Shown piece by piece: positions 4,383 through 60,501 of a stretch of DNA of 64,000 nucleotides. The stretch's first letter is position 1, and the number at the start of each line of letters is the position of its first letter. Origin of the DNA: Blastocystis sp. Blastoise (lineage: Eukaryota > Protista > Bigyra: Opalinata); assembly GCA_039096225.1 (NCBI GenBank), contig JBBPEB010000002.1, positions 744,001 through 808,000 of the forward strand. The letters run 5' to 3'. Under the pieces are notes generated by a model. That model was not told the origin of the DNA. It ran no database searches and saw nothing but the letters and a program-made list of their open reading frames with translations. A program made the position numbers and the translations under genes.

Positions 4383-4435
4383 TCTTCTTTCATTTCTATT
4401 TGTATTTAATGTTTCTAGTATTTCTATTATTCATA

Positions 4436-8929
<4,494 letters not shown>

Positions 8930-8961
8930 AGAATCTAAAAAAATAAACAAAAATAAAATTA

Positions 8962-24391: not shown

Positions 24392-27300
24392 ATTTACATG
24401 TCCTTCTCCTCTTGTATTATGTCCTGATAATACATGTAAACCTTCATCTTTTTATTGTTTTCAAACACCTCTTTGTCGATCTCCTTATATAAATTGTCCT
24501 AATGGAGGATGTGCTTTATTCTATCAACAATGTAGACCTAGTATCTTATGTACTTTTGAAAAACCTATTCTTTGTGATAATGGTACTTGTGTTGAAAAGA
24601 ATCAAGATTGTTATTCACAAATTCACTTTATTGAAAGAAATCAACAAGGAAGTATATATATATATATTATATATAAAATAATAATAATATATTTTTTAGA
24701 AACAACTACAACTACAAATATAACTATTCCTTCTTCTTCAATATTATTAACATCTCATTGTCCTTCTGCTTATCCATATTATTGTTCTTCTAGTAAAACA
24801 TGTGTACGAAATAGTTTATTATGTTCAAGTCCTGTTATTTGTCCTACTACGAGTCCTATATTATGTGATACTGGTTATTGTGTATCTTCTTATTCATTAT
24901 GTACTGATGAATCTAATTATCATTGTCCATTAGGATTCTATATGTGTGATTATCAAAAAATATGTGTAGAACATTCTTATTTATGTCCTACTATATCTGT
25001 ATGTAGAGATAATGAAATGAGATGTGAAGATGGAGGTTGTTATATGATTGAAGATAGTACTTATGGTGTTACCAATATATTCCCTTATATCTATAATTCT
25101 TTACAAGAATATAATGAAGAATATTTAGATATAACAGAATATCATGAAAAATCAGATTTAAATATAAAACATACTATAGAACAATGTGTTAGTAAATATT
25201 TAGAAATGTATATTGATGTATGTAATATATATAATAATAAAGAAGATATAAATAATTGTATTGATAAAATAAAAGATCGATATCAACATTTATGTTCACG
25301 TAATTATCAATTTTATCCTTGTAGAAGATATAATATACATTATAGTGATGATAGTTATTATATATATAGTATATCTCCCTATTTTATACCTACAGGAGAT
25401 CCTATTGCTTCTATAGAAGGATCTTTAACTTCGATAAATAAATATTATTGGGATCCATTATCTACAGATACATCCTTTCAATCGAATATCTTATCGAATT
25501 CTATTCCTCCTCCTCTTTGTCCTAAAGGTAGTAAACGATGTATAGAGGGTAGTTGTATATCTCAAAGTGAACAATGTCCTTCTTATCGTATATGTCCAAG
25601 AAATAAACCTATTTTATGTAGTGATGGATTATGTCATTATCATCAGAATCAATGTCTTAATACTATTCATTGTCCTATTAATTATAAATTATGTAATGAT
25701 GGTAGTTGTGTATTTATAACAAAGAAATGTCCATTATTATATTGTCCAACTACAAATCCTATATTATGTTGGGATCAATCATGTCATGTTTCTGAAGATG
25801 ATTGTCCACCTATACCTCCTTATGTACCTTCTAATTGTCTTAATGGAAAATGTATTACTACAGGAGCAAGACAAGTTACAAAATTTACTAGTTTTTGTAG
25901 TATTCATGGAGAATATGTTAAAGATCGAAGTGATTGTATTAATGGATATGAAGGTTATTATAGTATGTGTTTATTGTTATTTTATTTTATTTTTTTTTTA
26001 TTATTTGTATTTTTTTTTATTTTATAATAAATATCTTTTTATAGATAAATATTCAATGGAAAGTGATCATTATGTGACTGGTTTTTGTAGTTATGATAAA
26101 TATTTATGTTCTGATGGTACATGTGTTCGTGATTCTTCTTTATGTTCTGAACCTTTATGTCCTATGTTTAAACCTTATAAATGTATTTCAGGATTATGTG
26201 TATCTTCAAAAGAAGAATGTACATCGAATGATAATTGTAATAATGATCAATTTAGTGGATGGTGTCATAATACATTAATATGTTATACAAAAGATAGTTC
26301 AAAGAATAATATAGATATTTATCATTCTTCTTGTGATTGGACTTGTAATACTAATGGATATATACGTTGTTTAGATGGTACATGTCGTCAATCTATAGAA
26401 GATTGTCCTCTTTCGAATGGTTGCTCTTCTTCTAAACCTAAATCATGTTATAATGGTGAATGTATTAAAGAAGATGAAGAATGTAGTCGTATGTTTGTTT
26501 TATTATTTTATTTTTTTATAATAATTATATTTATATTTATAATAATAATAATAATAATAAATATTATGTAGCTTTATGTGTTGCTCCATATAAACAATGT
26601 GAGAATGGTTTGTGTATGATATCTACTTTTTATTGTCCTTATTCTTCTTATTCATTTATTCCTGAAGATACATCTCCTTCTCCTTCTTTATTTGAAACTT
26701 CATTATTGAATACAGATATAAATAATAATAGTTATATAAATAAAATAATGAATAATATAAAATCTATAATAAATACTCTATATAATACAATAATCGATTC
26801 TTTTATGAAATATATGGATAAATCTTTCTTTACAGAAAATAATCTTCAGAAAACATCTCCTTTATTAAATGAATATGAACATAAATTATTTAACAAAAAT
26901 AATAATACTAATAATAAACTATCCTTATTTTCTTCAGAACTCTTTGAATCTCCTTTAGTTTATTTTGTAGATCGTCAATATTTATATTCTTATTTTTCTA
27001 GTCTTCCTTCATTATGTAGTGAAGATAAACCAATTCGATGTGCTATAGGTATATGTGTGAAATCGTATACAGATTGTCCTTTGATTATGCCTTGTAATAC
27101 AAGTAATTATAATACAAATTATATTCGTTGTTCTGATGGTAGTTGTCGTGCTTCTTCTTCTTTATGTACTGATCGAACTATATGTACATCTCCTTATAAT
27201 TATATGTGTAAAACAGGATTATATAATGGATTATGTGTTGAAAAAGAAGAAGATTGTCTTAGTGATAATGGTAGGTTTATTATTATTATATATTAATTAA

Positions 27301-27950
27301 TAAATAAAAATTATAAATAATAATAATATTATATATAGGTTGTCCATTATCTTCTCCTTATAAATGTCCAACAGGTCGTTGTGTGAAATATTCTTATAAT
27401 TGTACAACTGAATATACCTATCATTCTTGTCCTCATGAAAGACCTTATAAATGTATTCGAGGAGAATGCGTAAGGAATGCTAATGAATGTACATTTATTA
27501 ATGGTTGTTCTCCTCTTCATCCTATATTATGTTCTAATGGTACTTGTGTTTCTACAAGAAATGAATGTTCGTCTATTCTAAATTCAAATATTATTTCTTG
27601 TCCTATAAATCAATCTTATATATGTCCAAATGGTCAATGTGTTTCTCATCCTTCACAATGTTTATTATTCAATAAATGTTCTATATATCATTCTCAAGCA
27701 TGTGCTTCTGGAGATTGTATTCCTTTACATGGTCAACGATATTCACCTATTTTATTATCTTTAAATATTATAAATGAAGATCAATCTGATAATTATTATA
27801 ATTCTATAGAAAATTATATATTATTATATAAAAATAGTCTAAATGAATTTATAATACTCTGATTCTTCGTATATTTTATATAACAATATGAAAACTTCCT
27901 TTTAATATTATGAATACATTATCTATGTATTCTTTATTAGTATATATAAT
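24392..27950 (+). pseudogene. Cysteine-rich repeat protein fragment (CPxxxPxLCxDGxCV repeats), multi-exon
   Basis: ORFs 24300-26027, 25786-26571, 26610-27296 and 27383-27862 joined by short introns. No clear start codon or signal peptide. Confidence 0.75.
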
Positions 27951-28138: not shown

Positions 28139-30673
28139 GTTATATTATATCACGTGTATATGTTCGTGGAATAAATACTGTGGTGGTTGTAACTTCGTCG
28201 GCACTTGCTAAAGTATCTTGATGTTTTCTTTTAGTTTGGTGAACCTCATTCTATATATATATAAATTATATAAACATGATGTACAGAATATAATAATAGT
28301 TACATATAGGTTCATATATGTTATATACACAGCAATAATCTTCGTCATTGTCTTCATTTGATTCCTTGAAGTTATGGATATCACATACTATAACATTTGT
28401 TGGAACTATTTTTTTGATATTAATATATGTCTCATCTAGATTATATGGATCTTTATATATTAAATTATTTGAATTATATATTTTAAAAAAAAGACCACTC
28501 TTTGATGATTTCGTATCAGGATAATGATGAGCCTTTACAATAAATAAGTCTTCTATTTGAATGTATTCTAGTGCCTTTACTAAGCAAACATGGCTTGTTC
28601 CATTTATGTAATCATAATACATCAAATAGGAGTTATCTAATTTTTCTACTCCTTCGTCAATGTCTGTGCACGTAAAAGATAATGAATCATTGATCAAAAT
28701 CTCCGAATATCTAAAGATATTTAATTTCTTGGTGTTCTCCATTACATTATGAAAATTACTTGAATCTCTTAATAATTCTATTCTGCTTTCTGTAGTTATA
28801 TCACCAACATTTAGATTTGAAAATAATTTATTATTAATGTATACGCTATTCATTCTTATTATATGCTTCAAGAATAACTCCGTAAATAATTGAGTATTAT
28901 TATTATTAATACTTTCTCTTATGCCCTTTACTGAATAAATCTTCTGATTTTGGTCAGTAACGTAGTAAACACACTCATAAGCATTAAATGTAACAACATG
29001 AGCTGCTATTGAACTACTCTCCGACTCTAATGAACTATTAATTATTGAAGATGCTATATCTATATCTATTATTTCTTTAAAAGCCATGCTAATTATTGAA
29101 GATTTATTGAAGAAGAATCTTCCATGTGTAAGACGTTTTATTGATGAATAAAACCTTTCAGATTCCCAGGTACTAGTATATTGAAGAGATCCGGCATTTT
29201 GAATTGATTTCGTTAAATGAGAGAAATAATGTATCTGACTATTGATAAATTCTTTTGGCAAAACTAGATCACATAAGAAGAGGAATATATAACACTTAGA
29301 GTTTATTATGCTTAAATCTTCTATTGTTAACATTTGATTCTTTAAAGTACATAACATAATTATATCAGCTTGAATTTCTACTAAAGGAACTAATAACGAA
29401 TCTGTCTGATTAAAGTCTGATATTATTAGTGGTAATATATATGAAGCAAAGAAGATTCTACTGTGTGATGTCATTTTATAAAAACTGGTTTCTTCCAAAG
29501 CGAAGCGAAATTGATTTTCACTATCATAGAAAAAAGAATTTACATATTCTAATCTACTCTTCAGTATTTTAATATTATCTGATGATAATTGTAGTCTCTT
29601 TAGTATTTCATCAGGCTTATTGTATTTATGTTTATTTAAAATATCTGTATATTTCATTGTGTCAAATCCTAATAATAATGACAGAAGAAGAACTATGGTG
29701 TTGTTAAACATGTGCATTGGATCAATATTATAGCTCGTTGCTGCATTAAAATATGGAAGTCTTTCGAATACACTTATTTTTGAATTAATACCGTTCATAG
29801 AAGTTCTTGATGAGGTTTCTTCTCTTGCTATCTCAATAGTTTCTTTTGTATTATCTTCACATATTATTGTAGAATATGCATCAGATTGGGTTTCACTCTT
29901 GAAATACTTAGTATAATTTATGCATTTAATACCGTTGATAATACAATCTTCTTTAACTGTTATTAGACTAGTAGAAATAGGATAGAAGATGGTTGTAGTT
30001 GTAGATGAAGGAGAATAATCTATGAATGGCTTTATAATTGAATACGAAGTCTTTATACCCTTATGGAAGTTATCGTTATCTTTTTGAATATGTAAATTAC
30101 AGAATCTGCATGGATAATTTGAAGCTGGTCCCGTGAATTCACCTATTTTCTGAATTTCAGCAGTATCACCATACACTTCTAAGAGAATTCCAACTACTCT
30201 TTTTTCTTCAAGCAAACCATTATTACAAACAAGCATTGGTATTCCATCTTTCAAAAGTAGAAGTTCTTTTACTAATAGCTGTAAAGCAATGCTACGTTCG
30301 TCTGTAGAAGAAACCGTAAATACCCAAAACTTCCTTTTATCATATAATCTTATGGGCTTATAATTTAGTAGTTTGATGAGTACTGGTTGGGAGCTTTTAT
30401 TCTTTTCTATTAATGGAGAATTATATACAGAAATTCCATCTGAAGTTACGGTGAAGAACAAAAATATATCACCGTTGTTATGAACTGTTTTCATGTACTC
30501 CTTAAAATTATCTCCATTCATGTATAAAGGAAGACTTTTATTTGAAACATAATTATCATGTAATGCTGGTTCTATATCTTCTTTATTATATAATTCAATA
30601 TCTTGAATTAATTTTTCGCTTTTGAGGAGTTGCTTAATACGAGATATCAGTGGTAAAACTGTGGTATATCTAA

Positions 30674-30711
<38 letters not shown>

Positions 30712-31038
30712 CATAATATCATATAATTAATATAATATAATTTAATATAATATAATATAATGTATAGATTTTATACATAACGATATTTATATATATTTAT
30801 AACTATGTTCTATTAAATATGTATATATATATATTAATGTATATCATTGAATATTATATATAATATAATATATATTATATAATTATATATAACATATATA
30901 TATAGGTATATACGAGAGCCGTCACAATTTACAGAGTTGCAATTATTTCTAGAATTTGTAGAAATATTTCTACCTGTATTAAAGTCAACTAATATTTTAC
31001 ATTCTTCACACCAAAATATATTTATACTAAATGGCATA
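28139..31038 (-). CDS. CMC DDE transposase of the 16025-41582 element, 3' portion
   Basis: VTSDGIS, YGDTA..FTG..YPCRFC, IDPMH, IHYFSH, TWESERFYSSIKR; collinear with 13051..14550; exon MPFSINIFWCEEC at ~30910-31037. Confidence 0.85.
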
Positions 31039-40360: not shown

Positions 40361-40640
40361 TGGTTCTCGAATTGAGATTTCTTATAATTAGTATATAATT
40401 ATTATTAAATATATTATCACTAAACATAATCTTTTATAGCCATTCATTCTTCATCTTTATTATTTTGGGATATTTTATTTTAGAATATTTACATATTTTT
40501 TTTATTTTCAAGGCAATAATGTATTTATTTATATATATACTTGTTTGTGTACAATTTATATATATGTATATTGTTTATAGGAGTTGATACTTTAGATAAT
40601 CAACAATTTTATTGTGTATTGTATGTTTATTTGAAAAATA

Positions 40641-41050
40641 TTTATAAGATTTTTAGGTTATTAGTTTTTGTATAAAGTGGTTGTTGTTGAGACTAGTATT
40701 CTGAATTGTAATTCTTGTATATATAAAATTTATTATTATCTTATTTATAAGATTTTTAGGTTATTAGTTTGTGTATAAAGTGGTTATTGTGGAGACTAGT
40801 ATTCTGAATTGCAATTCTTGTATATATAAAATTTATTATTATTTTATTTATAAGATTTTTAGGTTATTAGTTTGTGTATAAAGTGGTTATTGTGGAGACT
40901 AGTATTCTGAATTGTAATTCTGTATATATAAAATTTATTATTATTTTATTTATAAGATTTTTAGGTTATTAGTTTGTGCATAAAGTGGTTATTGTGGAGA
41001 CTAGTATTCTGAATTGTAATTCTGTATATATTTAATTTATTATTATCTTT
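40641..41050. repeat. Subterminal tandem repeat, ~103 bp x4
   Basis: TTTATAAGATTTTTAGGTTATTAGTTT.TGTATAAAGTGGTT..GAGACTAGTATTCTGAATTG starting at 40641, 40744, 40847 and 40949. Confidence 0.9.
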
Positions 41051-42522
41051 AAATTTATGTATTTTATAGTCATTAAAAATTTGTGATTTCAAAAAAGAAA
41101 TACTTTAAATATAATATTTCTTGCTATTATAATTATTATTTACATATTTTTTATAGACACATATCTTGGGCTTTCATTTATAGCCTTTTATTAAATTATA
41201 ATTAATTAGCTTATATTTTATTTTAAAAGTGCATATTTTTTAAATTTTTACTTAATATAGTCATAAATAGTCGATTTTATATTATTTTTGTTATGTTTAT
41301 AAATTAATAACCTATGAAACTACTAATCAAAAGAAATGAAAAGCAAAATTTGTTTTTATATTCTTGAATAAATAAAAATAATAATCCAATCATATAACTT
41401 ATATGAAACCACATCGACAAAATAATTGGATATAAGCGCTATTATGTCCACTCAAATTGTATATATATATTTTAGTATCCATTAACATTGTTGTAAAAAA
41501 CGAGCTGAAAAAATCTGAATCAGTCTGATCCGTTCAAAGCTTATGGATCAAACTTTTTGATTCACGGGAATGCCTGTCAGTGTCGGCAGATTTCGACCTC
41601 TTTAATTTCGAGTTTTGACTTCATATTTGGTGTAAGGATGCCTTATATGTTACATTATGATATTTCATATCTTTAAATGCTTTTTAAAAAAGGTTAAAAA
41701 AGTTAATTGCGGCTTTGCACCAAAATAAGTCGTTCTAACACACTTTTTATAAGTCATATTAATAGATAATAAACTATTACATATATATATAAAGTCAAAA
41801 TATAAAATATCGTTGAATCTCGGGGTCAAAAATGAAAAAGAAATTTTGATTTTTTTCAAAATTTTTGTTTTTATCGTTTTAACTAAGGTCAATTTCAATT
41901 ATCATTTTTCTATCAATAAAGTCAATATTTTTATAACATATAATATGTTTTATTCTGATCATAAAATATAAAAAATTAGTTCTTAAAAATAAAAATTGAC
42001 TGAGAAATAAAAATTCAAAGTGGTATGTCTCTCAAAATATTTTTACTTTTTTAATACTGTTTTTTTTATTGTATCCCTATAAACACTACTAATTAACTGA
42101 AAAAAAATTATTCTATAATTATAAGAATTATATATATTTATTTATAATAGTGAAAATTTATATTAGTCAAGCTAATAATTATTTTTAGTATATATGACAT
42201 ATTAAAGTATGAAATATATTTTCTTATCATAAGAATTCATTTTTAAAAAACGATAATGTTTTTTATATTTATTTTTTGTTCTTTTCAAAAGTAGTTTTAA
42301 ATATGTATAAACATAGAAAAATTTAATGACTTAGTTTATAAATTTTTAAAATGTAAAAAAAAATAATTTTATTTCCATTACTTTTAGACATCTTTATTAT
42401 GAAATGGATTCTTTATGAATATAAAAAAAAAATTTATCTATTATTAAAAAAGAAAATATGAATACAAATTCTTATTCATAAACTATCATGCATTTTTATT
42501 ATATATAGATAAGTAGATATTA

Positions 42523-43348: not shown

Positions 43349-44502
43349 TTATAATAATAATAAATAGAGTCATAATAGAATATAAAATATTAAAAATTAG
43401 TCTAATTAAATATGGTTGACTGTTTGATAGGAATGTTAGAATGGGTAAAATGATTTTAATTGCTTCTAAAACAGTATAATACGTTTTTATGTCACTAAAT
43501 ATAAAAATATTATAGCTTAAAGAATGTTTTTTGTCTTTCAAAAGAACTCATTTTTTGTAATTGTGGCTTTAAACAAAAGAGATTCAAGTTATTCTTTACA
43601 AATTAAATAATAAATTCAATATATATGTATATGAATATAAAATTCGTTTTAATAAAAGTGAATGTGTTTGAAAAAAATGTTAAAAGTTTTTTAGAGTTTT
43701 TTAAAAATAACTTATTTGTTTTATAAACTTTATTTCATGTACAATAGGTAAAGTATTTTAAAGTACTAAATCTATTTATGATATAGAATGTAATTTTTGG
43801 TTTATATTTAGTTTTTCGTTTCATTTAATGAAATGATTTTGAAAACATTATAAAAAATGAATAGATAATTTTTAAAAATAATTCTTTTTTCTTTTATAAA
43901 AAAAATTCTATATATGATAAATATTTATAAAAGAACTCTATGAGTTATTATCGATTATATAGAATAATATATATTTTTTAATTATTAAAAATATTTTTTG
44001 TTTTTAAAAATCCAAATTGAAATAGGAGTAATAAAAAAAGAATAATATTATAAACATTTGAATCTGATAGTATTAAACTATAGCAACTATTACATATAAT
44101 TAAACATTTATTAATACGAAAAAGGGGTATAATAAAATATTAAATATATATATATATAATAGTATATATAAAAAGAAATGATAGAATATAAAAAATCAAA
44201 TAGAGATAAAAATGATAATAATTTAAAATGAAATAAAATAATATATGAGAAAATTCATAAAAGAATAAATAATATTTTTTAGACAAAAGAGTAAGTTGTT
44301 TCTCATAATAATAATTATATAGAATAATTTAAAATAAAAAATAAATACTTAAAGATAAGATATAACTGATAATATTAAGTTTTAAAATAAAAAATTTTTT
44401 ATAATCATAATAATATTGTTTAAAGTATAAAATATTTATAAAACTAAATGAATTTATAATTACAAAAACAGTTATAAATAAATTAACAAAGAAAAGTGAA
44501 TT

Positions 44503-44710
44503 AATATAGAAATATAAATATAAATATAAATATAAATATAAATATAAATATAAATATAAATATAAATATAAATATAAATATAAATATAAATATAAATATA
44601 AATCTAAACTTAAATCTAAATCTAAATAGAAATCTAAATAGAAATATAAATAGAAATAGAAATAGAAATAGAAATAGAAATAGAAATAGAAATAGAAATA
44701 GAAATATGAA
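44503..44710. repeat. Hexanucleotide microsatellite (AAATAT/AAATAG)n
   Basis: Seen directly. Confidence 0.9.
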
Positions 44711-45139
44711 TAAGATCAAAAATAAAACACAAGAGCTAATCAATTATTATTAATAAACAATAAATATATATAATCAATAATAAAAATAGCTAAAATGATA
44801 CTAAATAAAAAAGGAAATAATACTCAAAAAAATGTAATATAAAATGTTAAATAGGAATTATCAATAAAGTATGAATTGAATTATTTAGAATATACTAAAC
44901 TAATAACTAAACAATAGAAGATAACAACTAAAACAATTGAAATAATAATTTATAAAATATGAAATAGTCTTCATCCTAAAAATAAAAAAAATAGAAATGA
45001 ATAACAAAAACATAAAAATAAACATAATATTAAAAAAAAACATAAAATATAACAATTAAGAGATGACAACTATCAAAACTCAAGCGTAGGTGGCGTAGCC
45101 AGTCGTGAAACGCTTGTATATATAAATATATTAATATAC

Positions 45140-46020
45140 CATTTTATATCGCTATTCTTTAAATAATATGAACCATCACCTAATTTGTTTGGACCTAATT
45201 CGCAAAGTTTTTTTGCTGTATAGGTTTTTCCCAAACCAGTTTCGCCCCATATATATATAACTACTGGAGATTCTACTCTTTTCTTTTCATTAAAATCATA
45301 GATTAATCTCTTAATTGCTTGTGAATGTAAGAGTGTAAATCCCGGAAATTCGTGCCATATAGCATCGTAAGTATTACCATTCCTTATTGCTGTAGCTACT
45401 TCTTCGGAAATTTTTTTCGGATGTTTTTTATTTTTATAATATTTAACATCTGTTTTAATAAATCTAATAGGACCAGGTGATAACGGAGAAGGTTCACTAC
45501 TTATGTTTCTTGATTCTAAGTTATACAGTCTTCCATTGAAAGTTTGACTTGCAAATAAATCACGATGAGTACCACTTGTTATAGCTCCATAGCCTCTAGT
45601 ATTTTGGTTACGATATATTTCATGTAAATTATTTATCTATATATATATATATATATACATATATATATGTATATACCTCTGATAAATAATATAGTACGTT
45701 TTCACGAGTTCCATCACGAGGTCTAACATCTGTATGTTCCAACTGAAGCATTCTTCGGACCTTATTTCTTCTTCTTCTTGTTGTTAATTCAATGTATAAA
45801 TGTGTATGCGTATTATGTGTTTCGTTATTAGGTTCAGTTACATACGCCACATACATAATTTCCTGTGGTAAACCATTTTCCTCCCAATTAGGTAGAGTCT
45901 CTTGAAAAAAGAAATCTCGGTCATCACCGAATAGTGTACAAAACCAATATTGACTTTGTGGTGACTATATACATATATACATAATAATTATATAAATACA
46001 ACATTATTATTATCACTCAT
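45140..46020 (-). pseudogene. rep: Divergent Rep paralog, truncated before Walker B
   Basis: Exons 46020-46000, 45964-45677 and 45636-45140 give YWFCTLF, THTHLYIE, VLYYLSE, WGETGLGKT...DIKW. The last exon is absent. Confidence 0.88.
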
Positions 46021-46337
46021 ATTTATAAAATATCAAATAAATATTAAAATAAATTATAAAATAAATTATAAAATAAAATAAATATAAGCCACGTCAGCAT
46101 AATTAAAAATACAGAATATGCCCTTATATCTTGTCAGGACCTAATCACCAGTCAATAAAAATTAAATTGTACCCATTCCCAAAACTCTTTTTTTGCTATT
46201 TTTAGGGTCTAATTCCTTCTGGATAAAAAGTTATTTCAATTTAAAGGTTTGGGACCCTAATTATAAATATTAAGAATTACACTACAACCAAACTCAACTT
46301 ATCCAATCCGATCGGAGAAACTCAAGATTCCTCCAAT

Positions 46338-46374
46338 CAAATTGAGCGATGACGCATTATTACATCACAATTTG
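46338..46374 (+). promoter_or_regulatory. Putative rolling-circle origin, copy 1 (nonamer CATTATTAC at 46355-46363)
   Basis: CAAATTG-AGC-GATG [ACGCATTATTA] CATC-A-CAATTTG imperfect stem; fits the NANTATTAC consensus. Confidence 0.75.
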
Positions 46375-46871
46375 CTCTCAGCGAAACACGAAACAAAGAT
46401 CATCATAAGAGTATTTGACTCGAAAGTCAGAAGTAAATCTTACAATTAGTTGATCTTGATTTTTTATATCTATATTGTCTTTGTTTTCTATTCTTTCGAA
46501 CCACCTTTCTAATATATTACTACTTGAGAAATTCAACTCAATGCACATGTTCATGTGTATTCACGGGAAAGTTTTTTTACATTCGCGGCTTTTACCCGTA
46601 TATACCGTTCTTTATATTTAGCCGCCCCGTGAATATCTTTGTGAGTGAGAGCTGAGAGCAAATGCTCAGTTTTGTGGTTGTATAGTACTCTCGGATCCTT
46701 ATCTTGTTTTATTGTAGAAGTTCACAAAGAGTATGGTCGCGCAGTCGAGTTTGGTGTTCGATTTTTTTTTTTTTTTTTTTATGTTTTTTTTTAAAAAGAA
46801 TTAACAAAACAGTGTTTTTAATTATATATTATTATATTAGACAAGAATTAATGTTTGTAGTGTTAGTATAT

Positions 46872-47618
46872 TTAGTGTCGTAATCTATCTGGTAGATGTT
46901 GAGCATAGTATACCATAGGTGATGTTCCTGCTGTTTGTGCAGCGGCAACGTATCTTGTAGCTTCGTCGAACAATGCAGTGATAACGGTATTATATTGTGG
47001 TTCTGTTCTGAAAGTCATTTGTCCTCCTTCTGAAATATTATACATAATAGGAAATGTGTTGATTCCTCCCATTTGGTATATAAAAACTAGTATTGTTTCT
47101 GCTTTTGTAAAATCATCGGATGCATAGTAGATGGGTAGTGTGAAATCATAGGCGAGTTGTTCTGCAGTGAATGGATAGGTATAGAGTAAACCGTTTAGTC
47201 TATATATATATTCTTTTTTGACTCCGTTTTTGTTAATTGTGTAGACTGTGTTTATAATTTGTTTGATAGTAGAGTTGCAGAGTTTTTTAATGTTCTTTGC
47301 ATTTTCGTCGTCACCTGTAGCGCTTGGTATAAATATTTGAATTGGTATAGTATAATCTGTTGATGTTAATAGTGTTCTAGCTTGAGCTACGTACATTCTT
47401 CCACATTTTTTGGCTACAAGCATTAATTGGTGCCTAAGTTTGTGTTTATTTGCGATTCCACCTACGGTAGTATCTTCGGCGATAGTTGCCCAATTTGTTC
47501 TAAAAGAATTAACTGCATTGTTATAAGTGGTTACAGCGTTTGAATTTCTATTATATCTTCTTCTTCTATAATAGGTACGTTGAGTACCTCTATATCTGGA
47601 TGAGTATCTATAAGGCAT
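46872..47618 (-). CDS. 248-aa protein with Arg/Tyr-rich N-terminal arm (capsid or genome-binding structural protein)
   Basis: MPYRYSSRYRGTQRTYYRRRRYNRN N-terminus typical of CRESS capsids; intronless intact ORF. Confidence 0.65.
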   Translation of the reverse strand: MPYRYSSRYRGTQRTYYRRRRYNRNSNAVTTYNNAVNSFRTNWATIAEDTTVGGIANKHKLRHQLMLVAKKCGRMYVAQARTLLTSTDYTIPIQIFIPSATGDDENAKNIKKLCNSTIKQIINTVYTINKNGVKKEYIYRLNGLLYTYPFTAEQLAYDFTLPIYYASDDFTKAETILVFIYQMGGINTFPIMYNISEGGQMTFRTEPQYNTVITALFDEATRYVAAAQTAGTSPMVYYAQHLPDRLRH

Positions 47619-47672
47619 TTATTGTAAATAAAATAAATAAAATATGATATGATTTGATTAATAATTATTAAT

Positions 47673-47776
47673 GGAGTCAGTTTATCTGAATATATAAATT
47701 TGTTTTTAGAGACGGTTTATCTGAATATATAAATTCGTATTAGGAGACAGTTTATCTGTATATATAAATTCGTTTT
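47673..47776. promoter_or_regulatory. 35-bp x3 repeat with TATA motif between the divergent structural genes (also 52720-52823)
   Basis: GAG(T/A)C(A/G)GTTTATCTG(A/T)ATATATAAATT at 47673, 47708 and 47743. Confidence 0.6.
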
Positions 47777-47816
47777 CTTATAAATATGTTTTGTTATTTT
47801 GCATAAATTATTTTAA

Positions 47817-49055
47817 ATGTCTAGTTTAGGTACTATAATAAATGACAAGTTGTCAATGGCTAGTTCCTCTGCGGGAGCCCTTTATCTTAAGCGTTACGTT
47901 AATCCTTGTGATGATACTTCTATACCTGTTGACGGTGTACCTGATGGCCAAACCCACATGATTTATACTTTAAATAATAAGTTTAATATATCTATAGATC
48001 AAGATACATTTGTAGATCCTAGAGCTGTTGTCCCAGATTTATATAATAATTTTACTATAATTGCAACACCATGGTCTACTTATCCTATTTTGATTTATGG
48101 TACATTTACTTGGTATAATACTGTGGATAAAACATCATCATCTCAAACATGTATTATGGGTGTTAAAGATCCTAATTGGCAGCAAAATCAAGAAGATTTT
48201 AATTTAGGTCGTGGATTATTTCGTGGTTGTACATTAAAATGGGCTGGTAATACTAATAATATGCAAGGTCTTATATATGGTATTCAAGTACCGTATTGTG
48301 TAGATACTATGTATACTACTAGTGGTAGTGTAGAATCTCAAGATTTATCTTATAAAGCTTTTAATAGTTATATGAATCCTTATATTCCTTTAGATTCTAA
48401 TGCTATTACTTCTTATTCTCCAAAATATAAAGTATTTAATGTCCCTGATGGTTGTTATATGCCTCAACATTTATCTTATGGTTATAAGAATTATTATAGG
48501 CCACCTATATTTCAAAAGAAACAACTTGATACAGGAGATAGTTATGAATATTTTATTAATGGATTATTAGGAAGTGCTAGTGCTCAAATGAATATATTTG
48601 ATTATGATACTTGGATGTCTAAAAGAATATTTACTAAGGTTATGTTACCTATAGAAGTAACTGAATATGTTCCTTCTTTCTTACATACTGGATTTAATTT
48701 TGGTATTATTAGAGTTGAAGGTTCAAATTTTAACAATCCATTTACTTTAAAAATATGTAATGGTTATGAGTTAGTTCCTTCTTATAATAGTGAGTATTTC
48801 CCATTATTAAAGAATCCTCCTTTATTAGATGAACAAGCTCTTTATGCTTGTGCTATTTTAACTCAATCATTAGATTTTTGTTATCCTTCTTCTTATAATG
48901 ATTTTCAAACTATGTGGAATGGTGTAGTTGATTTCTGGAATAAATTTAAAAGGTCTTGGAATAGTGAAACTGTTCAAAATATAGCTACAGCTGCTAGTGC
49001 TATACCTGGTGTTTCTCCATGGGTTCAAGGAATAAATACTTTAACTAAATTTTAA
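47817..49055 (+). CDS. 412-aa capsid protein, alphanodavirus/tetravirus-like (peptidase A6/A21-type autocleaving coat)
   Basis: GALYLKRYVNP..GVPDG; GCYMP; LK..GYELVP..PPLLDEQAL..YPSSYN|DFQTMW..AASAIPG C-terminus. Confidence 0.75.
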   Translation: MSSLGTIINDKLSMASSSAGALYLKRYVNPCDDTSIPVDGVPDGQTHMIYTLNNKFNISIDQDTFVDPRAVVPDLYNNFTIIATPWSTYPILIYGTFTWYNTVDKTSSSQTCIMGVKDPNWQQNQEDFNLGRGLFRGCTLKWAGNTNNMQGLIYGIQVPYCVDTMYTTSGSVESQDLSYKAFNSYMNPYIPLDSNAITSYSPKYKVFNVPDGCYMPQHLSYGYKNYYRPPIFQKKQLDTGDSYEYFINGLLGSASAQMNIFDYDTWMSKRIFTKVMLPIEVTEYVPSFLHTGFNFGIIRVEGSNFNNPFTLKICNGYELVPSYNSEYFPLLKNPPLLDEQALYACAILTQSLDFCYPSSYNDFQTMWNGVVDFWNKFKRSWNSETVQNIATAASAIPGVSPWVQGINTLTKF

Positions 49056-49152
49056 TTTATGTGTATATATATTTTTATTTGTCTTAAATTAATTTTGTTT
49101 TGTTCAATTTTTATTATTACTACTCACACTCACTGCACTTCAACACAAATAT

Positions 49153-49227
49153 TATTTCACAATTTCACAATTTCACAAAATCACAATTTCACATTTTCAC
49201 AGATACACAATTTCACAATTGCACAAT
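49153..49227. repeat. 8-bp ATTTCACA tandem repeat between the convergent cap and rep 3' ends (also 54200-54274)
   Basis: About 9 imperfect units. Confidence 0.8.
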
Positions 49228-49340
49228 GTGTTGAGTTGCATATGAATTATATAACAAAACAAATAAGTTTTTAAAACAAAGATATAACTGAGAAAAGATA
49301 TGAAATCAGAAAAACTCAATAGATAATAAATATATAGAAT

Positions 49341-51066
49341 TTAGAATTCTTGTTTAATGTTTTGAGAGTCTGGGAGTATACAATAATCATCTTCGCTACT
49401 ATCCCATGAAAGACTTATAGGTTTATTATGATCAGAATATTCTTCATCGTCTTCTTCATTATCAGTGAAAGTGAGATCAATGAGTTCATTACTATATTCG
49501 TTATCTGAAGATGATAAATCTAGAATAGGTATAGGAGTATTAGGTCTTTTGTGACAGAAATTTGTTTTTTTAGGAGTAGTTATTTCAATAGTAGGAAGAG
49601 ATATACGAGGAGTTGTTGGAGGTGAGCTAAGGGTAAGTTCATTATCTAGTTCTATTTGTATGGGTATATTGACTGTTGGTTTGTATTGATTATTAATTTT
49701 CATCATAATATCAGCGGCTTGTATATATTTGGTTTCATCATCTTTATATAGTAGATTACGTCTGATACCTTTGATGTAATCATCTTTAGCTTTGCTATAT
49801 TTGAAATCAATAGTATTATCTTCAAGTAATTCATATTCATTGTAGAATCTTCTGAGTAGTTGTTCTAATTCATCATTTGAAAGTTCTTTGAAATTTTCTT
49901 TTAAGCTTCTATCAGACGTAAATATAATTAGAGGTGAGGTGATTTTTACTGTTGAACCTTTTGTTTCCACTCCTACATCATAATAATCTAAAATACGAAG
50001 AAGGTCTTTATCATTATAGATTTTTCTAAAATCATCAATAATGATGCCAAACTGACCTTTGTATCCATCCCACCTATAAATATAGAATATAATATAATAT
50101 ATACCATTTAATATCTCCATTCTTCATGTAGTAAGATCCTTTACCATCTTCATTTTCGCCTAGTTCACATATTTTTTTAGCTGTATAAGTTTTACCTACT
50201 CCAGTTTTCCCATATAAATATAAAACTATAGGTGCAGTATTTCTTTTTTTGGTATTAAAGTCATAGATTGCTTTTTTTATGTTATTTGAATGTAATAGGG
50301 CAAAGGAAGCATATTCTTCCCATATATCTTCATAAGTACAACCATTTTTTATCATTGAAGCAACTTCTTCAGATATTTTTTTTGGATCTATATATATAAT
50401 ATAAATTATAATGTATATACGTTTTTTGTTTTTAGAATATTTGACTTTATTATGAGTAAAATTCATAGGAGCTGTAGATATTGGGTCTATTCTAGCAAAG
50501 CTATTATTATTATTCATATTATAAAGAACACCATTATAAGTAGAAGCATTTATTAAATCGCGATGCATTCCATTTTGAAAGTTTGCTCCATATCCAAGTG
50601 TATTGCTTGTATTGTAATATTCATCTATTTCATTTATCTAATATTTATAATTAAATAATTAAATTAATATATATAAATATATACTTCACTTAAATAAATT
50701 AAAGTTGCCTCTCGTGACCACTCCCTTGGTCTTACATCAGTATGCTCTAAGGATAGTAATCTTATTATCTGATTTCTTCTTAACCTTTTTTTCATTTCCA
50801 TATATAAATGTACATGAGTGTTGTTTGTAGTCGGAGATACTTCTCTTGATAAAGCAACATAGTTCTATATATATATATATATAATATATTTATATACTAT
50901 TTCAAATGGAAGACCATTACTATTCCAACTGGGTTGGATTACTTCATTAAAATGTAAAAGGTCTTCACCAAATAAAGTAAGAGTCCAATATTGAGACTGA
51001 CGGTTCTATATAACAATAACTTAAATATATTTATTAATATACAGGGTTAGTATTATTATTTTGCAT
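49341..51066 (-). CDS. rep: Replication-associated protein Rep (HUH endonuclease plus SF3 helicase), 6 exons, 514 aa
   Basis: Exons 51066-51043, 51005-50898, 50864-50685, 50637-50421, 50387-50105 and 50073-49341 splice in frame. Motifs WTLTLF, HVHLY, YLSE, GKTGVGKT, WWDGY, IIIDDF, VETKG, IIFTSD, LLRRF. Confidence 0.92.
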
Positions 51067-51384
51067 TTTTTTTTTTTTTACTAAAAATTATAAAATAAAT
51101 TATAAAATAAATTATAAAATAAAATAAATATAAGCCACGTCAGCATAATTAAAAATACAGAATATGCCCTTATATCTTGTCAGGACCTAATCACCAGTCA
51201 ATAAAAATTAAATTGTACCCATTCCCAAAACTCTTTTTTTGCTATTTTTAGGGTCTAATTCCTTCTGGATAAAAAGTTATTTCAATTTAAAGGTTTGGGA
51301 CCCTAATTATAAATATTAAGAATTACACTTACAACCAAACACAACTTATCCAATCCGATCGGAGAAACTCAAGATTCCTCCAAT

Positions 51385-51421
51385 CAAATTGAGCGATGAC
51401 GCATTATTACATCACAATTTG
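51385..51421 (+). promoter_or_regulatory. Putative origin, copy 2 (nonamer 51402-51410)
   Basis: Identical to copy 1. Confidence 0.75.
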
Positions 51422-51918
51422 CTCTCAGCGAAACACGAAACAAAGATCATCATAAGAGTATTTGACTCGAAAGTCAGAAGTAAATCTTACAATTAGTTGA
51501 TCTTGATTTTTTATATCTATATTGTCTTTGTTTTCTATTCTTTCGAACCACCTTTCTAATATATTACTACTTGAGAAATTCAACTCAATGCACATGTTCA
51601 TGTGTATTCACGGGAAAGTTTTTTTACATTCGCGGCTTTTACCCGTATATACCGTTCTTTATATTTAGCCGCCCCGTGAATATCTTTGTGAGTGAGAGCT
51701 GAGAGCAAATGCTCAGTTTTGTGGTTGTATAGTACTCTCGGATCCTTATCTTGTTTTATTGTAGAAGTTCACAAAGAGTATGGTCGCGCAGTCGAGTTTG
51801 GTGTTCGATTTTTTTTTTTTTTTTTTTATGTTTTTTTTTAAAAAGAATTAACAAAACAGTGTTTTTAATTATATATTATTATATTAGACAAGAATTAATG
51901 TTTGTAGTGTTAGTATAT

Positions 51919-52665
51919 TTAGTGTCGTAATCTATCTGGTAGATGTTGAGCATAGTATACCATAGGTGATGTTCCTGCTGTTTGTGCAGCGGCAACGTAT
52001 CTTGTAGCTTCGTCGAACAATGCAGTGATAACGGTATTATATTGTGGTTCTGTTCTGAAAGTCATTTGTCCTCCTTCTGAAATATTATACATAATAGGAA
52101 ATGTGTTGATTCCTCCCATTTGGTATATAAAAACTAGTATTGTTTCTGCTTTTGTAAAATCATCGGATGCATAGTAGATGGGTAGTGTGAAATCATAGGC
52201 GAGTTGTTCTGCAGTGAATGGATAGGTATAGAGTAAACCGTTTAGTCTATATATATATTCTTTTTTGACTCCGTTTTTGTTAATTGTGTAGACTGTGTTT
52301 ATAATTTGTTTGATAGTAGAGTTGCAGAGTTTTTTAATGTTCTTTGCATTTTCGTCGTCACCTGTAGCGCTTGGTATAAATATTTGAATTGGTATAGTAT
52401 AATCTGTTGATGTTAATAGTGTTCTAGCTTGAGCTACGTACATTCTTCCACATTTTTTGGCTACAAGCATTAATTGGTGCCTAAGTTTGTGTTTATTTGC
52501 GATTCCACCTACGGTAGTATCTTCGGCGATAGTTGCCCAATTTGTTCTAAAAGAATTAACTGCATTGTTATAAGTGGTTACAGCGTTTGAATTTCTATTA
52601 TATCTTCTTCTTCTATAATAGGTACGTTGAGTACCTCTATATCTGGATGAGTATCTATAAGGCAT
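51919..52665 (-). CDS. 248-aa Arg-rich-arm protein, copy 2
   Basis: Identical translation to 46872..47618. Confidence 0.65.
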   Translation of the reverse strand: MPYRYSSRYRGTQRTYYRRRRYNRNSNAVTTYNNAVNSFRTNWATIAEDTTVGGIANKHKLRHQLMLVAKKCGRMYVAQARTLLTSTDYTIPIQIFIPSATGDDENAKNIKKLCNSTIKQIINTVYTINKNGVKKEYIYRLNGLLYTYPFTAEQLAYDFTLPIYYASDDFTKAETILVFIYQMGGINTFPIMYNISEGGQMTFRTEPQYNTVITALFDEATRYVAAAQTAGTSPMVYYAQHLPDRLRH

Positions 52666-52863
52666 TTATTGTAAATAAAATAAATAAAATATGATATGAT
52701 TTGATTAATAATTATTAATGGAGTCAGTTTATCTGAATATATAAATTTGTTTTTAGAGACGGTTTATCTGAATATATAAATTCGTATTAGGAGACAGTTT
52801 ATCTGTATATATAAATTCGTTTTCTTATAAATATGTTTTGTTATTTTGCATAAATTATTTTAA

Positions 52864-54102
52864 ATGTCTAGTTTAGGTACTATAATAAATGACAAGTTGT
52901 CAATGGCTAGTTCCTCTGCGGGAGCCCTTTATCTTAAGCGTTACGTTAATCCTTGTGATGATACTTCTATACCTGTTGACGGTGTACCTGATGGCCAAAC
53001 CCACATGATTTATACTTTAAATAATAAGTTTAATATATCTATAGATCAAGATACATTTGTAGATCCTAGAGCTGTTGTCCCAGATTTATATAATAATTTT
53101 ACTATAATTGCAACACCATGGTCTACTTATCCTATTTTGATTTATGGTACATTTACTTGGTATAATACTGTGGATAAAACATCATCATCTCAAACATGTA
53201 TTATGGGTGTTAAAGATCCTAATTGGCAGCAAAATCAAGAAGATTTTAATTTAGGTCGTGGATTATTTCGTGGTTGTACATTAAAATGGGCTGGTAATAC
53301 TAATAATATGCAAGGTCTTATATATGGTATTCAAGTACCGTATTGTGTAGATACTATGTATACTACTAGTGGTAGTGTAGAATCTCAAGATTTATCTTAT
53401 AAAGCTTTTAATAGTTATATGAATCCTTATATTCCTTTAGATTCTAATGCTATTACTTCTTATTCTCCAAAATATAAAGTATTTAATGTCCCTGATGGTT
53501 GTTATATGCCTCAACATTTATCTTATGGTTATAAGAATTATTATAGGCCACCTATATTTCAAAAGAAACAACTTGATACAGGAGATAGTTATGAATATTT
53601 TATTAATGGATTATTAGGAAGTGCTAGTGCTCAAATGAATATATTTGATTATGATACTTGGATGTCTAAAAGAATATTTACTAAGGTTATGTTACCTATA
53701 GAAGTAACTGAATATGTTCCTTCTTTCTTACATACTGGATTTAATTTTGGTATTATTAGAGTTGAAGGTTCAAATTTTAACAATCCATTTACTTTAAAAA
53801 TATGTAATGGTTATGAGTTAGTTCCTTCTTATAATAGTGAGTATTTCCCATTATTAAAGAATCCTCCTTTATTAGATGAACAAGCTCTTTATGCTTGTGC
53901 TATTTTAACTCAATCATTAGATTTTTGTTATCCTTCTTCTTATAATGATTTTCAAACTATGTGGAATGGTGTAGTTGATTTCTGGAATAAATTTAAAAGG
54001 TCTTGGAATAGTGAAACTGTTCAAAATATAGCTACAGCTGCTAGTGCTATACCTGGTGTTTCTCCATGGGTTCAAGGAATAAATACTTTAACTAAATTTT
54101 AA
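52864..54102 (+). CDS. 412-aa noda/tetravirus-like capsid, copy 2
   Basis: Identical translation to 47817..49055. Confidence 0.75.
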   Translation: MSSLGTIINDKLSMASSSAGALYLKRYVNPCDDTSIPVDGVPDGQTHMIYTLNNKFNISIDQDTFVDPRAVVPDLYNNFTIIATPWSTYPILIYGTFTWYNTVDKTSSSQTCIMGVKDPNWQQNQEDFNLGRGLFRGCTLKWAGNTNNMQGLIYGIQVPYCVDTMYTTSGSVESQDLSYKAFNSYMNPYIPLDSNAITSYSPKYKVFNVPDGCYMPQHLSYGYKNYYRPPIFQKKQLDTGDSYEYFINGLLGSASAQMNIFDYDTWMSKRIFTKVMLPIEVTEYVPSFLHTGFNFGIIRVEGSNFNNPFTLKICNGYELVPSYNSEYFPLLKNPPLLDEQALYACAILTQSLDFCYPSSYNDFQTMWNGVVDFWNKFKRSWNSETVQNIATAASAIPGVSPWVQGINTLTKF

Positions 54103-54387
54103 TTTATGTGTATATATATTTTTATTTGTCTTAAATTAATTTTGTTTTGTTCAATTTTTATTATTACTACTCACACTCACTGCACTTCAACACAAATATT
54201 ATTTCACAATTTCACAATTTCACAAAATCACAATTTCACATTTTCACAGATACACAATTTCACAATTGCACAATGTGTTGAGTTGCATATGAATTATATA
54301 ACAAAACAAATAAGTTTTTAAAACAAAGATATAACTGAGAAAAGATATGAAATCAGAAAAACTCAATAGATAATAAATATATAGAAT

Positions 54388-56113
54388 TTAGAATTCTTGT
54401 TTAATGTTTTGAGAGTCTGGGAGTATACAATAATCATCTTCGCTACTATCCCATGAAAGACTTATAGGTTTATTATGATCAGAATATTCTTCATCGTCTT
54501 CTTCATTATCAGTGAAAGTGAGATCAATGAGTTCATTACTATATTCGTTATCTGAAGATGATAAATCTAGAATAGGTATAGGAGTATTAGGTCTTTTGTG
54601 ACAGAAATTTGTTTTTTTAGGAGTAGTTATTTCAATAGTAGGAAGAGATATACGAGGAGTTGTTGGAGGTGAGCTAAGGGTAAGTTCATTATCTAGTTCT
54701 ATTTGTATGGGTATATTGACTGTTGGTTTGTATTGATTATTAATTTTCATCATAATATCAGCGGCTTGTATATATTTGGTTTCATCATCTTTATATAGTA
54801 GATTACGTCTGATACCTTTGATGTAATCATCTTTAGCTTTGCTATATTTGAAATCAATAGTATTATCTTCAAGTAATTCATATTCATTGTAGAATCTTCT
54901 GAGTAGTTGTTCTAATTCATCATTTGAAAGTTCTTTGAAATTTTCTTTTAAGCTTCTATCAGACGTAAATATAATTAGAGGTGAGGTGATTTTTACTGTT
55001 GAACCTTTTGTTTCCACTCCTACATCATAATAATCTAAAATACGAAGAAGGTCTTTATCATTATAGATTTTTCTAAAATCATCAATAATGATGCCAAACT
55101 GACCTTTGTATCCATCCCACCTATAAATATAGAATATAATATAATATATACCATTTAATATCTCCATTCTTCATGTAGTAAGATCCTTTACCATCTTCAT
55201 TTTCGCCTAGTTCACATATTTTTTTAGCTGTATAAGTTTTACCTACTCCAGTTTTCCCATATAAATATAAAACTATAGGTGCAGTATTTCTTTTTTTGGT
55301 ATTAAAGTCATAGATTGCTTTTTTTATGTTATTTGAATGTAATAGGGCAAAGGAAGCATATTCTTCCCATATATCTTCATAAGTACAACCATTTTTTATC
55401 ATTGAAGCAACTTCTTCAGATATTTTTTTTGGATCTATATATATAATATAAATTATAATGTATATACGTTTTTTGTTTTTAGAATATTTGACTTTATTAT
55501 GAGTAAAATTCATAGGAGCTGTAGATATTGGGTCTATTCTAGCAAAGCTATTATTATTATTCATATTATAAAGAACACCATTATAAGTAGAAGCATTTAT
55601 TAAATCGCGATGCATTCCATTTTGAAAGTTTGCTCCATATCCAAGTGTATTGCTTGTATTGTAATATTCATCTATTTCATTTATCTAATATTTATAATTA
55701 AATAATTAAATTAATATATATAAATATATACTTCACTTAAATAAATTAAAGTTGCCTCTCGTGACCACTCCCTTGGTCTTACATCAGTATGCTCTAAGGA
55801 TAGTAATCTTATTATCTGATTTCTTCTTAACCTTTTTTTCATTTCCATATATAAATGTACATGAGTGTTGTTTGTAGTCGGAGATACTTCTCTTGATAAA
55901 GCAACATAGTTCTATATATATATATATATAATATATTTATATACTATTTCAAATGGAAGACCATTACTATTCCAACTGGGTTGGATTACTTCATTAAAAT
56001 GTAAAAGGTCTTCACCAAATAAAGTAAGAGTCCAATATTGAGACTGACGGTTCTATATAACAATAACTTAAATATATTTATTAATATACAGGGTTAGTAT
56101 TATTATTTTGCAT
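54388..56113 (-). CDS. rep: Rep, copy 2 (6 exons)
   Basis: Same as 49341..51066 shifted by 5047. Confidence 0.92.
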
Positions 56114-56431
56114 TTTTTTTTTTTTTACTAAAAATTATAAAATAAATTATAAAATAAATTATAAAATAAAATAAATATAAGCCACGTCAGCATAATTAAA
56201 AATACAGAATATGCCCTTATATCTTGTCAGGACCTAATCACCAGTCAATAAAAATTAAATTGTACCCATTCCCAAAACTCTTTTTTTGCTATTTTTAGGG
56301 TCTAATTCCTTCTGGATAAAAAGTTATTTCAATTTAAAGGTTTGGGACCCTAATTATAAATATTAAGAATTACACTTACAACCAAACACAACTTATCCAA
56401 TCCGATCGGAGAAACTCAAGATTCCTCCAAT

Positions 56432-56468
56432 CAAATTGAGCGATGACGCATTATTACATCACAATTTG
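56432..56468 (+). promoter_or_regulatory. Putative origin, copy 3 (nonamer 56449-56457)
   Basis: Identical to copy 1. Confidence 0.75.
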
Positions 56469-56775
56469 CTCTCAGCGAAACACGAAACAAAGATCATCAT
56501 AAGAGTATTTGACTCGAAAGTCAGAAGTAAATCTTACAATTAGTTGATCTTGATTTTTTATATCTATATTGTCTTTGTTTTCTATTCTTTCGAACCACCT
56601 TTCTAATATATTACTACTTGAGAAATTCAACTCAATGCACATGTTCATGTGTATTCACGGGAAAGTTTTTTTACATTCGCGGCTTTTACCCGTATATACC
56701 GTTCTTTATATTTAGCCGCCCCGTGAATATCTTTGTGAGTGAGAGCTGAGAGCAAATTGTGATGTAATAATATAT

Positions 56776-57314
56776 CACTGTTATTCTGGTTTCATCATTT
56801 TAAATCATATGATTGGCTTATTTCAGTTCAAAATTTGTTCAGCCACTAAAAATAGAGTAGTTTCATGGACTTAGGCAAAAATCGTGGATTTTGACAAAAT
56901 TTTGACACTTTTTTCAGTCGACTTTTGATTTAGACTTTAAAACCCTATTAGACAAATTTTAATAAAGAATTGGCATTATTGTTTATTTACAGAGGGTCAC
57001 ATAATACCCAAAACGTTTTTCTTTATTTTAAAGTGTTAATTTTGTGAATTCATGGTGTCCAAATTTTTTAAATTTTATAGTAGTGTTTGAAGTTTAGACC
57101 CTCTTATAGTCATAAATGTAATTAAAAGTGAATAAGCTGGTCTCTATGACTCAGAACCAAAATTCAGTCAAAAAATCAAAAATTTATTTCTTTTTACACT
57201 GAAAAATTGAGCCGAGCCTATTTGTATCATGGACAGTCAGACCAGAGTTTTCCATTTGAGATAATTGACTCAGGACGCTTTAAATTGTAAAACTTGACTC
57301 AGGATAGTCTATTT
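56776..57314 (+). mobile_element. End of another CACTG (CMC) element; the partner end is not in the window
   Basis: Begins CACTG; the next ~500 bp are similar to 16060-16550. Confidence 0.75.
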
Positions 57315-60353
<3,039 letters not shown>

Positions 60354-60501
60354 ATTTTTCAGTACTATTATTACCGCGATAAACTTGACAAAATGGCAGT
60401 GTTTTTATTGTTGTAAATTATAGAGAAAATAATTAAGGGGAAAAAATACACAATTCTTTGTTTATATTAATTATTCTATATTTGACGTTGTTGACGAGTG
60501 T

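Follow-up and report, generated by a model that had tools for sequence, protein, structure and literature searches.

A Rep gene with five short spliceosomal introns in an integrated CRESS-DNA virus-like element of Blastocystis

Introns in the replication-associated protein gene (Rep) of viruses with circular single-stranded DNA that encodes Rep (CRESS-DNA viruses) have been described as single, with one origin for the intron of gemini- and genomovirus Reps and a second for that of circoviruses (10.1101/687855, in its accessible part). Here we consider a stretch of 64,000 nt from Blastocystis sp. Blastoise (GenBank assembly GCA_039096225.1, contig JBBPEB010000002.1, positions 744,001 to 808,000; hereafter the window), in which a gene that we call RepA (49341..51066, minus strand) is interrupted by five introns. 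The gene sits in what appears to be a chromosomally integrated CRESS-DNA virus of Blastocystis whose Rep carries five host-type spliceosomal introns. A five-intron Rep goes beyond the published single-intron pattern; it is real and partly confirmed at the RNA level. The original prediction for this locus had stated that spliced CRESS Reps usually have a single intron, and the source quoted above bears this out.

Integrated relatives are known from the same host: 38 cressdnavirus insertions were reported in Blastocystis subtypes 1-9, 37 of them Rep-like and including CRESSV1/pecoviruses (PMC9615429, accessible part), in a text with 0 occurrences of 'intron' or 'splic'. One pecovirus genus has a genome of about 2.9 kb with two opposed open reading frames (ORFs) and a TAGTATTAC origin, according to the available portion of PMC13475009. 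The Bacilladnaviridae and Gandreviridae are larger single-stranded DNA (ssDNA) viruses (4-9 kb) whose large T=3 capsid is nodavirus-like, and bacilladnaviruses infect algae (PMC11945456); the accessible part of that paper makes no mention of multi-intron Reps. Viral genomes rich in introns have been described among mirusviruses and decaying endogenous giant viruses, which are large double-stranded DNA (dsDNA) viruses whose introns, around 80 bp long, show enrichment in virion genes (PMC12768974, as far as accessible). A literature search, with supplements and subscription journals outside its scope, found neither a multi-intron CRESS Rep nor the present element.

Five introns in RepA and their removal

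RepA is composed of six exons on the minus strand (51066-51043, 51005-50898, 50864-50685, 50637-50421, 50387-50105 and 50073-49341; 24+108+180+217+283+733 = 1,545 nt), separated by introns of 37, 33, 47, 33 and 31 nt that all read GTATA...TAG. As predicted from the letters, joining the exons gives a stop-free frame of 514 aa, and the product is letter-identical to an NCBI protein model (P0001, 'hypothetical protein, Blastocystis sp. Blastoise') found by a search with the last exon. A related claim, that ORF-based screens would miss this Rep, holds only in part: CRESS Reps are found at E 1e-7 with the last exon alone, and NCBI already contains the spliced model, albeit without a name. Introns 1 (51042-51006), 2 (50897-50865) and 3 (50684-50638, directly after motif III) are in phase 0; intron 4 (50420-50388) is in phase 1, within a lineage-specific linker, and intron 5 (50104-50074) is in phase 2 and interrupts the conserved WWDGY. 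Retention of intron 1, 2, 3 or 5 would cut the protein off after 10, 54, 110 or 280 residues, and retention of intron 4 would add 11 residues without a stop.

The five introns are beyond chance. Their GC content is 4-11%, a range not represented in the coding sequence (0/1,513 exonic 33-nt windows at <=12% GC), and a crude intron-pattern scan gave 5 candidates for Rep in the sense direction, none in antisense and none for either adjacent ORF. All five lie in Rep (1,545 coding nt) and none in the two other ORFs of the element (1,986 nt); by hand calculation, uniform gain would place all five in Rep with a probability of (1545/3531)^5 = 0.016. In length, the viral introns (median 35 nt, n=7) fall below the host candidates of the window (median 75 nt, n=25; one-sided p 0.0008), of which 4/25 measure <=47 nt, the host census being a crude pattern scan and not an annotation.

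Evidence for splicing comes from X1, the one of three listed sequencing runs that contains the stretch, consisting of assembled contigs and guessed to be RNA, no listed run with the stretch being recorded as such. Nine X1 contigs match the stretch, and they cover the ORFs and leave the intergenic bins 45886-46880 and 49070-49268 empty, which fits RNA. In one contig, 881 nt long, three joints leave out precisely 50074-50104, 50388-50420 and 50638-50684, i.e., introns 5, 4 and 3, with CT..AC ends on the plus strand. Of this contig 74 nt are unlisted, and its last-bin depth of 1.98 matches about 65 nt of sequence beyond intron 2 (5.63 x 65/185), from which we infer that intron 2 is spliced as well; exon 1 lies almost wholly outside the stretch compared with X1, so that joints there are not covered. 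The check proposed originally, junctions in RNA, thus came out for introns 3, 4 and 5 and by depth arithmetic only for intron 2. X1 contigs carry the letters of the window at 4/4 covered sites that differ in the protein models of a second locus on the same contig (see below). We conclude that these are spliceosomal (U2-type) GT-AG introns, three of the five being seen to be removed exactly in a run guessed as RNA.

These data bear directly on the most sceptical explanation, namely that the introns are artefacts: AT-rich stretches inserted during assembly, or GT-AG pairs that occur by chance in a gene that has decayed. In its favour, they are TA runs of low complexity, and a single run is informative. 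The RNA evidence amounts to one low-depth contig from one run of guessed kind, and X1 may be the same sample as the assembly and the NCBI model, so that run and model are not independent; both points weigh against our preferred reading. Nevertheless, decay or misassembly would hardly produce three introns skipped exactly at GT-AG in one contig, introns at the same codons in a 57%-identical relative, and an open 514-aa frame in which the helicase motifs are restored. The contig that skips three introns largely refutes the artefact explanation, which we regard as very improbable.

The encoded protein is a Cressdnaviricota-type Rep, an N-terminal HUH endonuclease fused to a superfamily 3 (SF3) helicase, with a 50-aa lineage-specific linker between the two and a disordered acidic tail rich in Pro, Ser and Thr. 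Over residues 8-350 its profile matches 36 CRESS Reps (probability 100, E 4e-42), and the helicase domain PF00910 scores 51.9 bits, above the cut-off. In a structural model built on an alignment of 113 sequences, the predicted local distance difference test (pLDDT) exceeds 90 for the larger part of residues 11-110 and 181-360, and is below 50 for residues 120-166 and 401-514; the best Foldseek matches of the fold are vientovirus Rep (E 5e-15) and porcine circovirus 2 (PCV2) Rep (E 2e-11). Walker A, WWDGY, Walker B, motif C and the Arg finger are all contained in RepA. The rolling-circle motif I (WTLTLF), motif II (THVHL) and Tyr101 are present, according to motif definitions that were compared with the alignment.

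RepB and the history of introns 2 and 4

A truncated relative, RepB (45118..46020, minus strand; exons 46020-46000, 45964-45677 and 45636-45140 of 21, 288 and 497 nt), is 57% identical to RepA over 268 codons, with 0.41 nonsynonymous (dN) and 1.19 synonymous (dS) substitutions per site and dN/dS 0.34. Its introns at 45999-45965 (35 nt) and 45676-45637 (40 nt) fall, in the alignment, at the codons where RepA has introns 1 and 3. Since these codons are shared by Reps so far diverged, the common introns predate a deep split under purifying selection. RepB has neither intron 2 nor intron 4. Its 288-nt exon equals RepA exons 2+3 (108+180), just as predicted, and sites 2 (45857/45856) and 4 (45423/45422) are uninterrupted, exact in the alignment and free of any scar. 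A 303-nt X1 contig reads through RepB site 4, with two other differences; in a depth-3 RepB contig, two C>A differences would give G158C and a stop at 144, and are errors or come from another copy.

RepB had been credited with introns at positions 1, 3 and 5, and the first two stand. For the fifth we see only the donor at 45139, at the same codon as in RepA, and then ~20 nt before the gene breaks off; neither RepB here nor a second RepB model on the contig has the acceptor or the helicase exon that should follow. We considered for RepB an intron 5 of 27 nt that would use AAG as its acceptor and dropped this reading, as the following sequence does not encode WDGY. Among the helicase motifs RepB keeps Walker A and lacks WDGY, Walker B, motif C and the Arg finger. 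The break coincides with a GC-rich hairpin (45081..45117, z -3.2), and the second RepB model ends in the hairpin letters after about 60 extra residues that are not found in the window. RepB lies to the left of a tandem array of 5,047-bp units, outside the unit itself, and shares the intergenic region of that unit up to ~25 nt before its own start codon. Because it is truncated and outside the repeat unit, RepA and RepB are likely genes of two related viruses, RepB having been joined at the shared intergenic region and not being a second gene of one virus. What remains of the proposed precise gain or loss between neighbouring viral genes is therefore an exact presence/absence of introns 2 and 4, probably between two viruses and without a polarised direction.

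The origin of new spliceosomal introns without a transposon is an open question, and few clean cases with an intron-free sister site are known. Introns 2 and 4 of RepA provide two 33-nt introns at exact sites, in a cultured host and with distant relatives contiguous, which makes direct tests possible. Our preferred reading, to which we give a probability of roughly 55%, is that the introns arose in a replicating virus lineage and that 2 and 4 were gained in RepA after its split from RepB. Intron sites 1-5 are spanned by 70, 122, 126, 126 and 127, respectively, of 127 distant Reps that are single proteins (P0130 and four non-Rep proteins left out), and the 50-aa insertion that holds intron 4 is present in RepA and RepB only (0/127 distant Reps). 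The ancestral Rep was likely contiguous, and this distant set leaves room for other intron-bearing lineages.

Two properties of the comparison count against a gain. The distant Reps came from a search for contiguous proteins of 282-900 aa, which excluded intron-split relatives by design, and no close outgroup to the RepA-RepB pair was found among the Reps searched. In the Rep tree the two group together (support 1.0), their stem measures 1.6 substitutions per site, and deeper nodes are unsupported; with so long a stem and no close outgroup, the polarity of gain versus loss rests on parsimony.

Under the opposite polarity, all five introns were already present in the ancestor, and a partly spliced Rep mRNA was reverse-transcribed and recombined with RepB, which thereby lost 2 and 4. 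Sites 2 and 4 of RepB are exact and scarless, as loss mediated by complementary DNA (cDNA) predicts, and a route to it exists, for the window encodes a reverse transcriptase of the type without long terminal repeats (non-LTR; 1944-4430, PF00078, E 1e-33). However, RepB kept introns 1 and 3 and the donor of 5, and since intron 3 lies between sites 2 and 4, loss needs two separate tracts or a partly spliced template. Gain in RepA takes two events, as compared with two gains plus losses. The extra introns also share a property: both are 33 nt and so in frame, whereas none of the other five complete introns has an in-frame length. At 1 in 9 by chance, this is a weak hint for gain. We thus hold loss from RepB to be unlikely, and retain gain in RepA as the preferred polarity.

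An introner origin was tried and rejected: intron interiors are 0.50-0.79 identical over 21 low-complexity pairs, and introns 2 and 4 (0.78) are no closer than unrelated pairs. No target-site duplication was seen at either junction of introns 2 and 4.

The repeated 5,047-bp unit, its integration and the host setting

RepA belongs to a unit of 5,047 bp made up of an intergenic region, a 248-aa ORF, three 35-bp repeats, a 412-aa ORF and RepA itself. The unit is repeated head to tail from ~46040 to 56757 in about 2.1 copies, with 0 mismatches over 5,416 compared nt; the second RepA (54388..56113, minus strand, offset 5,047) is identical to the first, introns included. Elsewhere on the same contig, NCBI accessions add one more identical RepA, the third, together with nearly identical copies of the two other ORFs and with the second RepB, a locus known from protein models alone. 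The integration looks recent, considering the absence of mismatches between copies, the intact ORFs and the three identical RepA accessions on one contig.

Within the intergenic region (46021..46871, repeated at about 51067-51918 and in part at 56114-56757) stands a candidate origin nonamer, CATTATTAC, at 46355-46363, 51402-51410 and 56449-56457. The right junction (56745..56778, minus strand) ends in a perfect 27-nt inverted copy of the stretch that this nonamer initiates (56745-56771 versus 56450-56476), and the inverted copy closes a 5-bp stem with TATTATTAC in the loop (56759-56778). Because the junction ends on this copy, it points to the nonamer as a candidate origin that was likely involved in the integration or rearrangement.

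The 412-aa ORF (47817..49055, plus strand; copy 2 at 52864-54102) is intronless and of the peptidase A6/A21 (noda/tetravirus-like) type. It matches the PDB entry 'Capsid protein alpha' (7xpg, E 3.6e-6) and peptidase A6 viral clusters of the Atlas (score 0.95, the family being on 44% of members), with Pfam A21 at E 0.03, below the cut-off. On these matches we class it as a noda/tetravirus-type capsid, in keeping with the jelly-roll capsids of Cressdnaviricota. The 248-aa ORF (46872..47618, minus strand; copy 2 at 51919-52665) is also intronless and is covered by an X1 contig. Its Arg-rich N-terminus (9 Arg in 30 aa) is a capsid-like start only; it has no Pfam, PHROG (best E 0.27) or PDB match, and its single-sequence fold reaches pLDDT 38. 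Among 1.84 billion representatives it retrieves its own copy at the second locus and, besides that, only a 1,006-aa protein, which we take as spurious, the similarity being in 9 short stretches. Both flanking ORFs therefore lack introns as originally claimed of the two 'structural genes', with capsid support for the 412-aa ORF only. If the 248-aa product were a second capsid or a DNA-binding core protein, the gene set of the unit would be unusual. Three 35-bp direct repeats (47673..47776) separate the divergent 248-aa and 412-aa ORFs, and a run of 8-bp ATTTCACA repeats (49154-49227) lies between the 3′ ends at which the capsid and RepA genes converge. Rfam returned 0 matches over 44000-58000.

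In the preferred reading, RepA would have acquired its introns stepwise, in a virus lineage that had not ceased to replicate. The host spliceosome would make one Rep mRNA, Rep would nick the intergenic nonamer and copy a 5,047-nt circle, and the 412-aa capsid would package that circle. New introns probably start from short insertions rich in AT; in this host such insertions come close to spelling the splice signals (GTATAT...TATAG), and a packaging limit may keep the introns short. Introns carried by a replicating virus are favoured because the shared introns are old and the integration young, and because the introns are confined to Rep and shorter than the host candidates. The more general proposition, that a lineage of Blastocystis ssDNA viruses gains Rep introns serially while replicating, with two births bracketed by a sister gene and the virus class under-detected, we put forward tentatively, at somewhat less than even odds.

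Several observations pull the other way. Motif III, just before intron 3, is YLSE in RepA (50685-50696) and RepB (45677-45688, both minus strand), with Glu in place of the lysine (YxxK) found in at least 90% of 113 aligned Reps; judged from sequence, this missing lysine is the main mark against an ordinary active nuclease. Motif II is HxH and not HxQ, and a Pfam scan did not detect Viral_Rep in RepA. For the nonamer stem-loop of the NANTATTAC type that characterises Cressdnaviricota, the element offers the candidate CATTATTAC and its inverted copy at the right junction, yet the motif is no commoner in the window than chance (41 vs 47) and neither candidate stem folds better than shuffles. The identity of the tandem copies could come in part from assembly polishing. 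Searches for a free relative with DNA context, made in IMG/VR with RepA, with RepA and RepB aligned, with each of the two other ORFs and with a 22-nt pattern for the origin, and in JGI metagenomes with the two Reps aligned and with the capsid, found none, and among shorter proteins none of 91 candidates was a Rep relative. A plasmid search likewise found no relative. Finally, DNA-transposon-like genes in the window carry host-type intron candidates, too, which implies that resident foreign DNA can gain introns here.

Part of this would be expected if the Reps were long-term chromosomal residents, whether as a domesticated gene or as a mobile element driven by Rep, and acquired introns as host genes do, with the capsid genes arriving later or being exempt. 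The absence of the motif III lysine from both Reps, the adjacent transposon-like genes with intron candidates, the host-type splice signals and the long stem branch all suit such residence, as does the fact that these Reps are known from this genome only, at two places on one contig. It accounts less well for an intact capsid gene in a virus-sized unit with an origin-like junction, or for zero divergence between copies. The viral introns, furthermore, are without the long TAT/TA expansions of most host candidates. The two other runs of the same study contain next to none of the element's words, and no contig of these runs (X2 and X3) matches the stretch, which is no proof of absence. We consider long-term residence improbable, and favour introns acquired in a replicating virus lineage.

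The surroundings are those of AT-rich eukaryotic DNA (GC mostly 17-30%), with genes interrupted by GTATA...TAG intron candidates. Tortoise-associated Blastocystis has 21-23% GC and introns longer and more variable than the 30-nt introns of human subtypes (PMC10690189, accessible part), and by this profile the host is a gut protist; 'virus' and 'viral' occur once each in that text, and its accessible part does not describe the element. The reverse transcriptase mentioned above is part of a non-LTR retroelement-like region (736-9034, minus strand). Its low-complexity frame (4436-9034) begins in a tRNA-Phe gene (8962-9034), suggesting that the element is possibly tRNA-targeted, and a further ORF (736-1992) has what we take to be Cys/His and PD..D-like motifs. 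Two related long ORFs at 12871-14550 (plus) and 28266-30770 (minus) show weak DUF4218 matches (E 5e-4 and 1e-4) and are presumably EnSpm/CACTA-like; intron candidates lie upstream of the latter. Beside the right junction, a transposon-like element (57314-60354) has imperfect inverted repeats (57314-57357 / 60310-60354) and ORF pieces that are interrupted by host-type intron candidates; the pieces are blank in the Pfam scan and bear motifs that we assume to be piggyBac-like. The window further holds a 103-bp unit in four copies at 96% identity (40639-41051) and a large Cys-rich repeat protein gene in pieces (24255-27862, plus), for which an Atlas search gave no match.

Comparison with described systems

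With RepA, CRESS Reps would extend from the published single intron to five, and a 5-kb virus, if the preferred reading is true, could adopt the intron style of its host. Surveys based on Rep may under-call viruses of intron-rich protists, RepA exons being pieces of 8-94 codons. Within the unit, a Rep of circovirus/redondovirus-like type stands beside a capsid of RNA-virus type and an orphan ORF.

In having a CRESS Rep transcript that the host spliceosome processes, RepA resembles the Reps of Genomoviridae, of mastre-, becurto-, capula- and grabloviruses and of porcine circovirus (10.1101/687855, accessible part). Reps of the Genomoviridae/geminivirus type, as presented there, have one intron at one inherited position, whereas RepA has five spread over nuclease, linker and helicase, two of them differing between relatives. 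RepA also falls apart from the intron-bearing gemini/genomovirus clade in being closer, in sequence as well as in fold, to circovirus/redondovirus-type Reps (best matches vientovirus and PCV2). The insertions previously reported in Blastocystis are Rep-like, too (PMC9615429, in the part accessible), while here a whole, tandem and apparently transcribed 5,047-bp unit with three ORFs is found. That length, the three ORFs and a different nonamer set the unit apart from the plan of Pecoviridae (CRESSV1), as far as the accessible sources describe it; labelled pecovirus Reps are not among the matches of RepA, and the tree backbone is unsupported. Bacilladnaviridae and Gandreviridae, in the available account, are similar in size and capsid type, but the present unit, seen as an integrated tandem array, has an extra Arg-rich 248-aa ORF. 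Mirusviruses and endogenous giant viruses, going by the accessible part of their description, are likewise protist viruses with many canonical spliceosomal introns; in contrast to these, the Blastocystis element is of a 5-kb ssDNA type, and its introns are of 31-47 nt and lie in the replication gene only.
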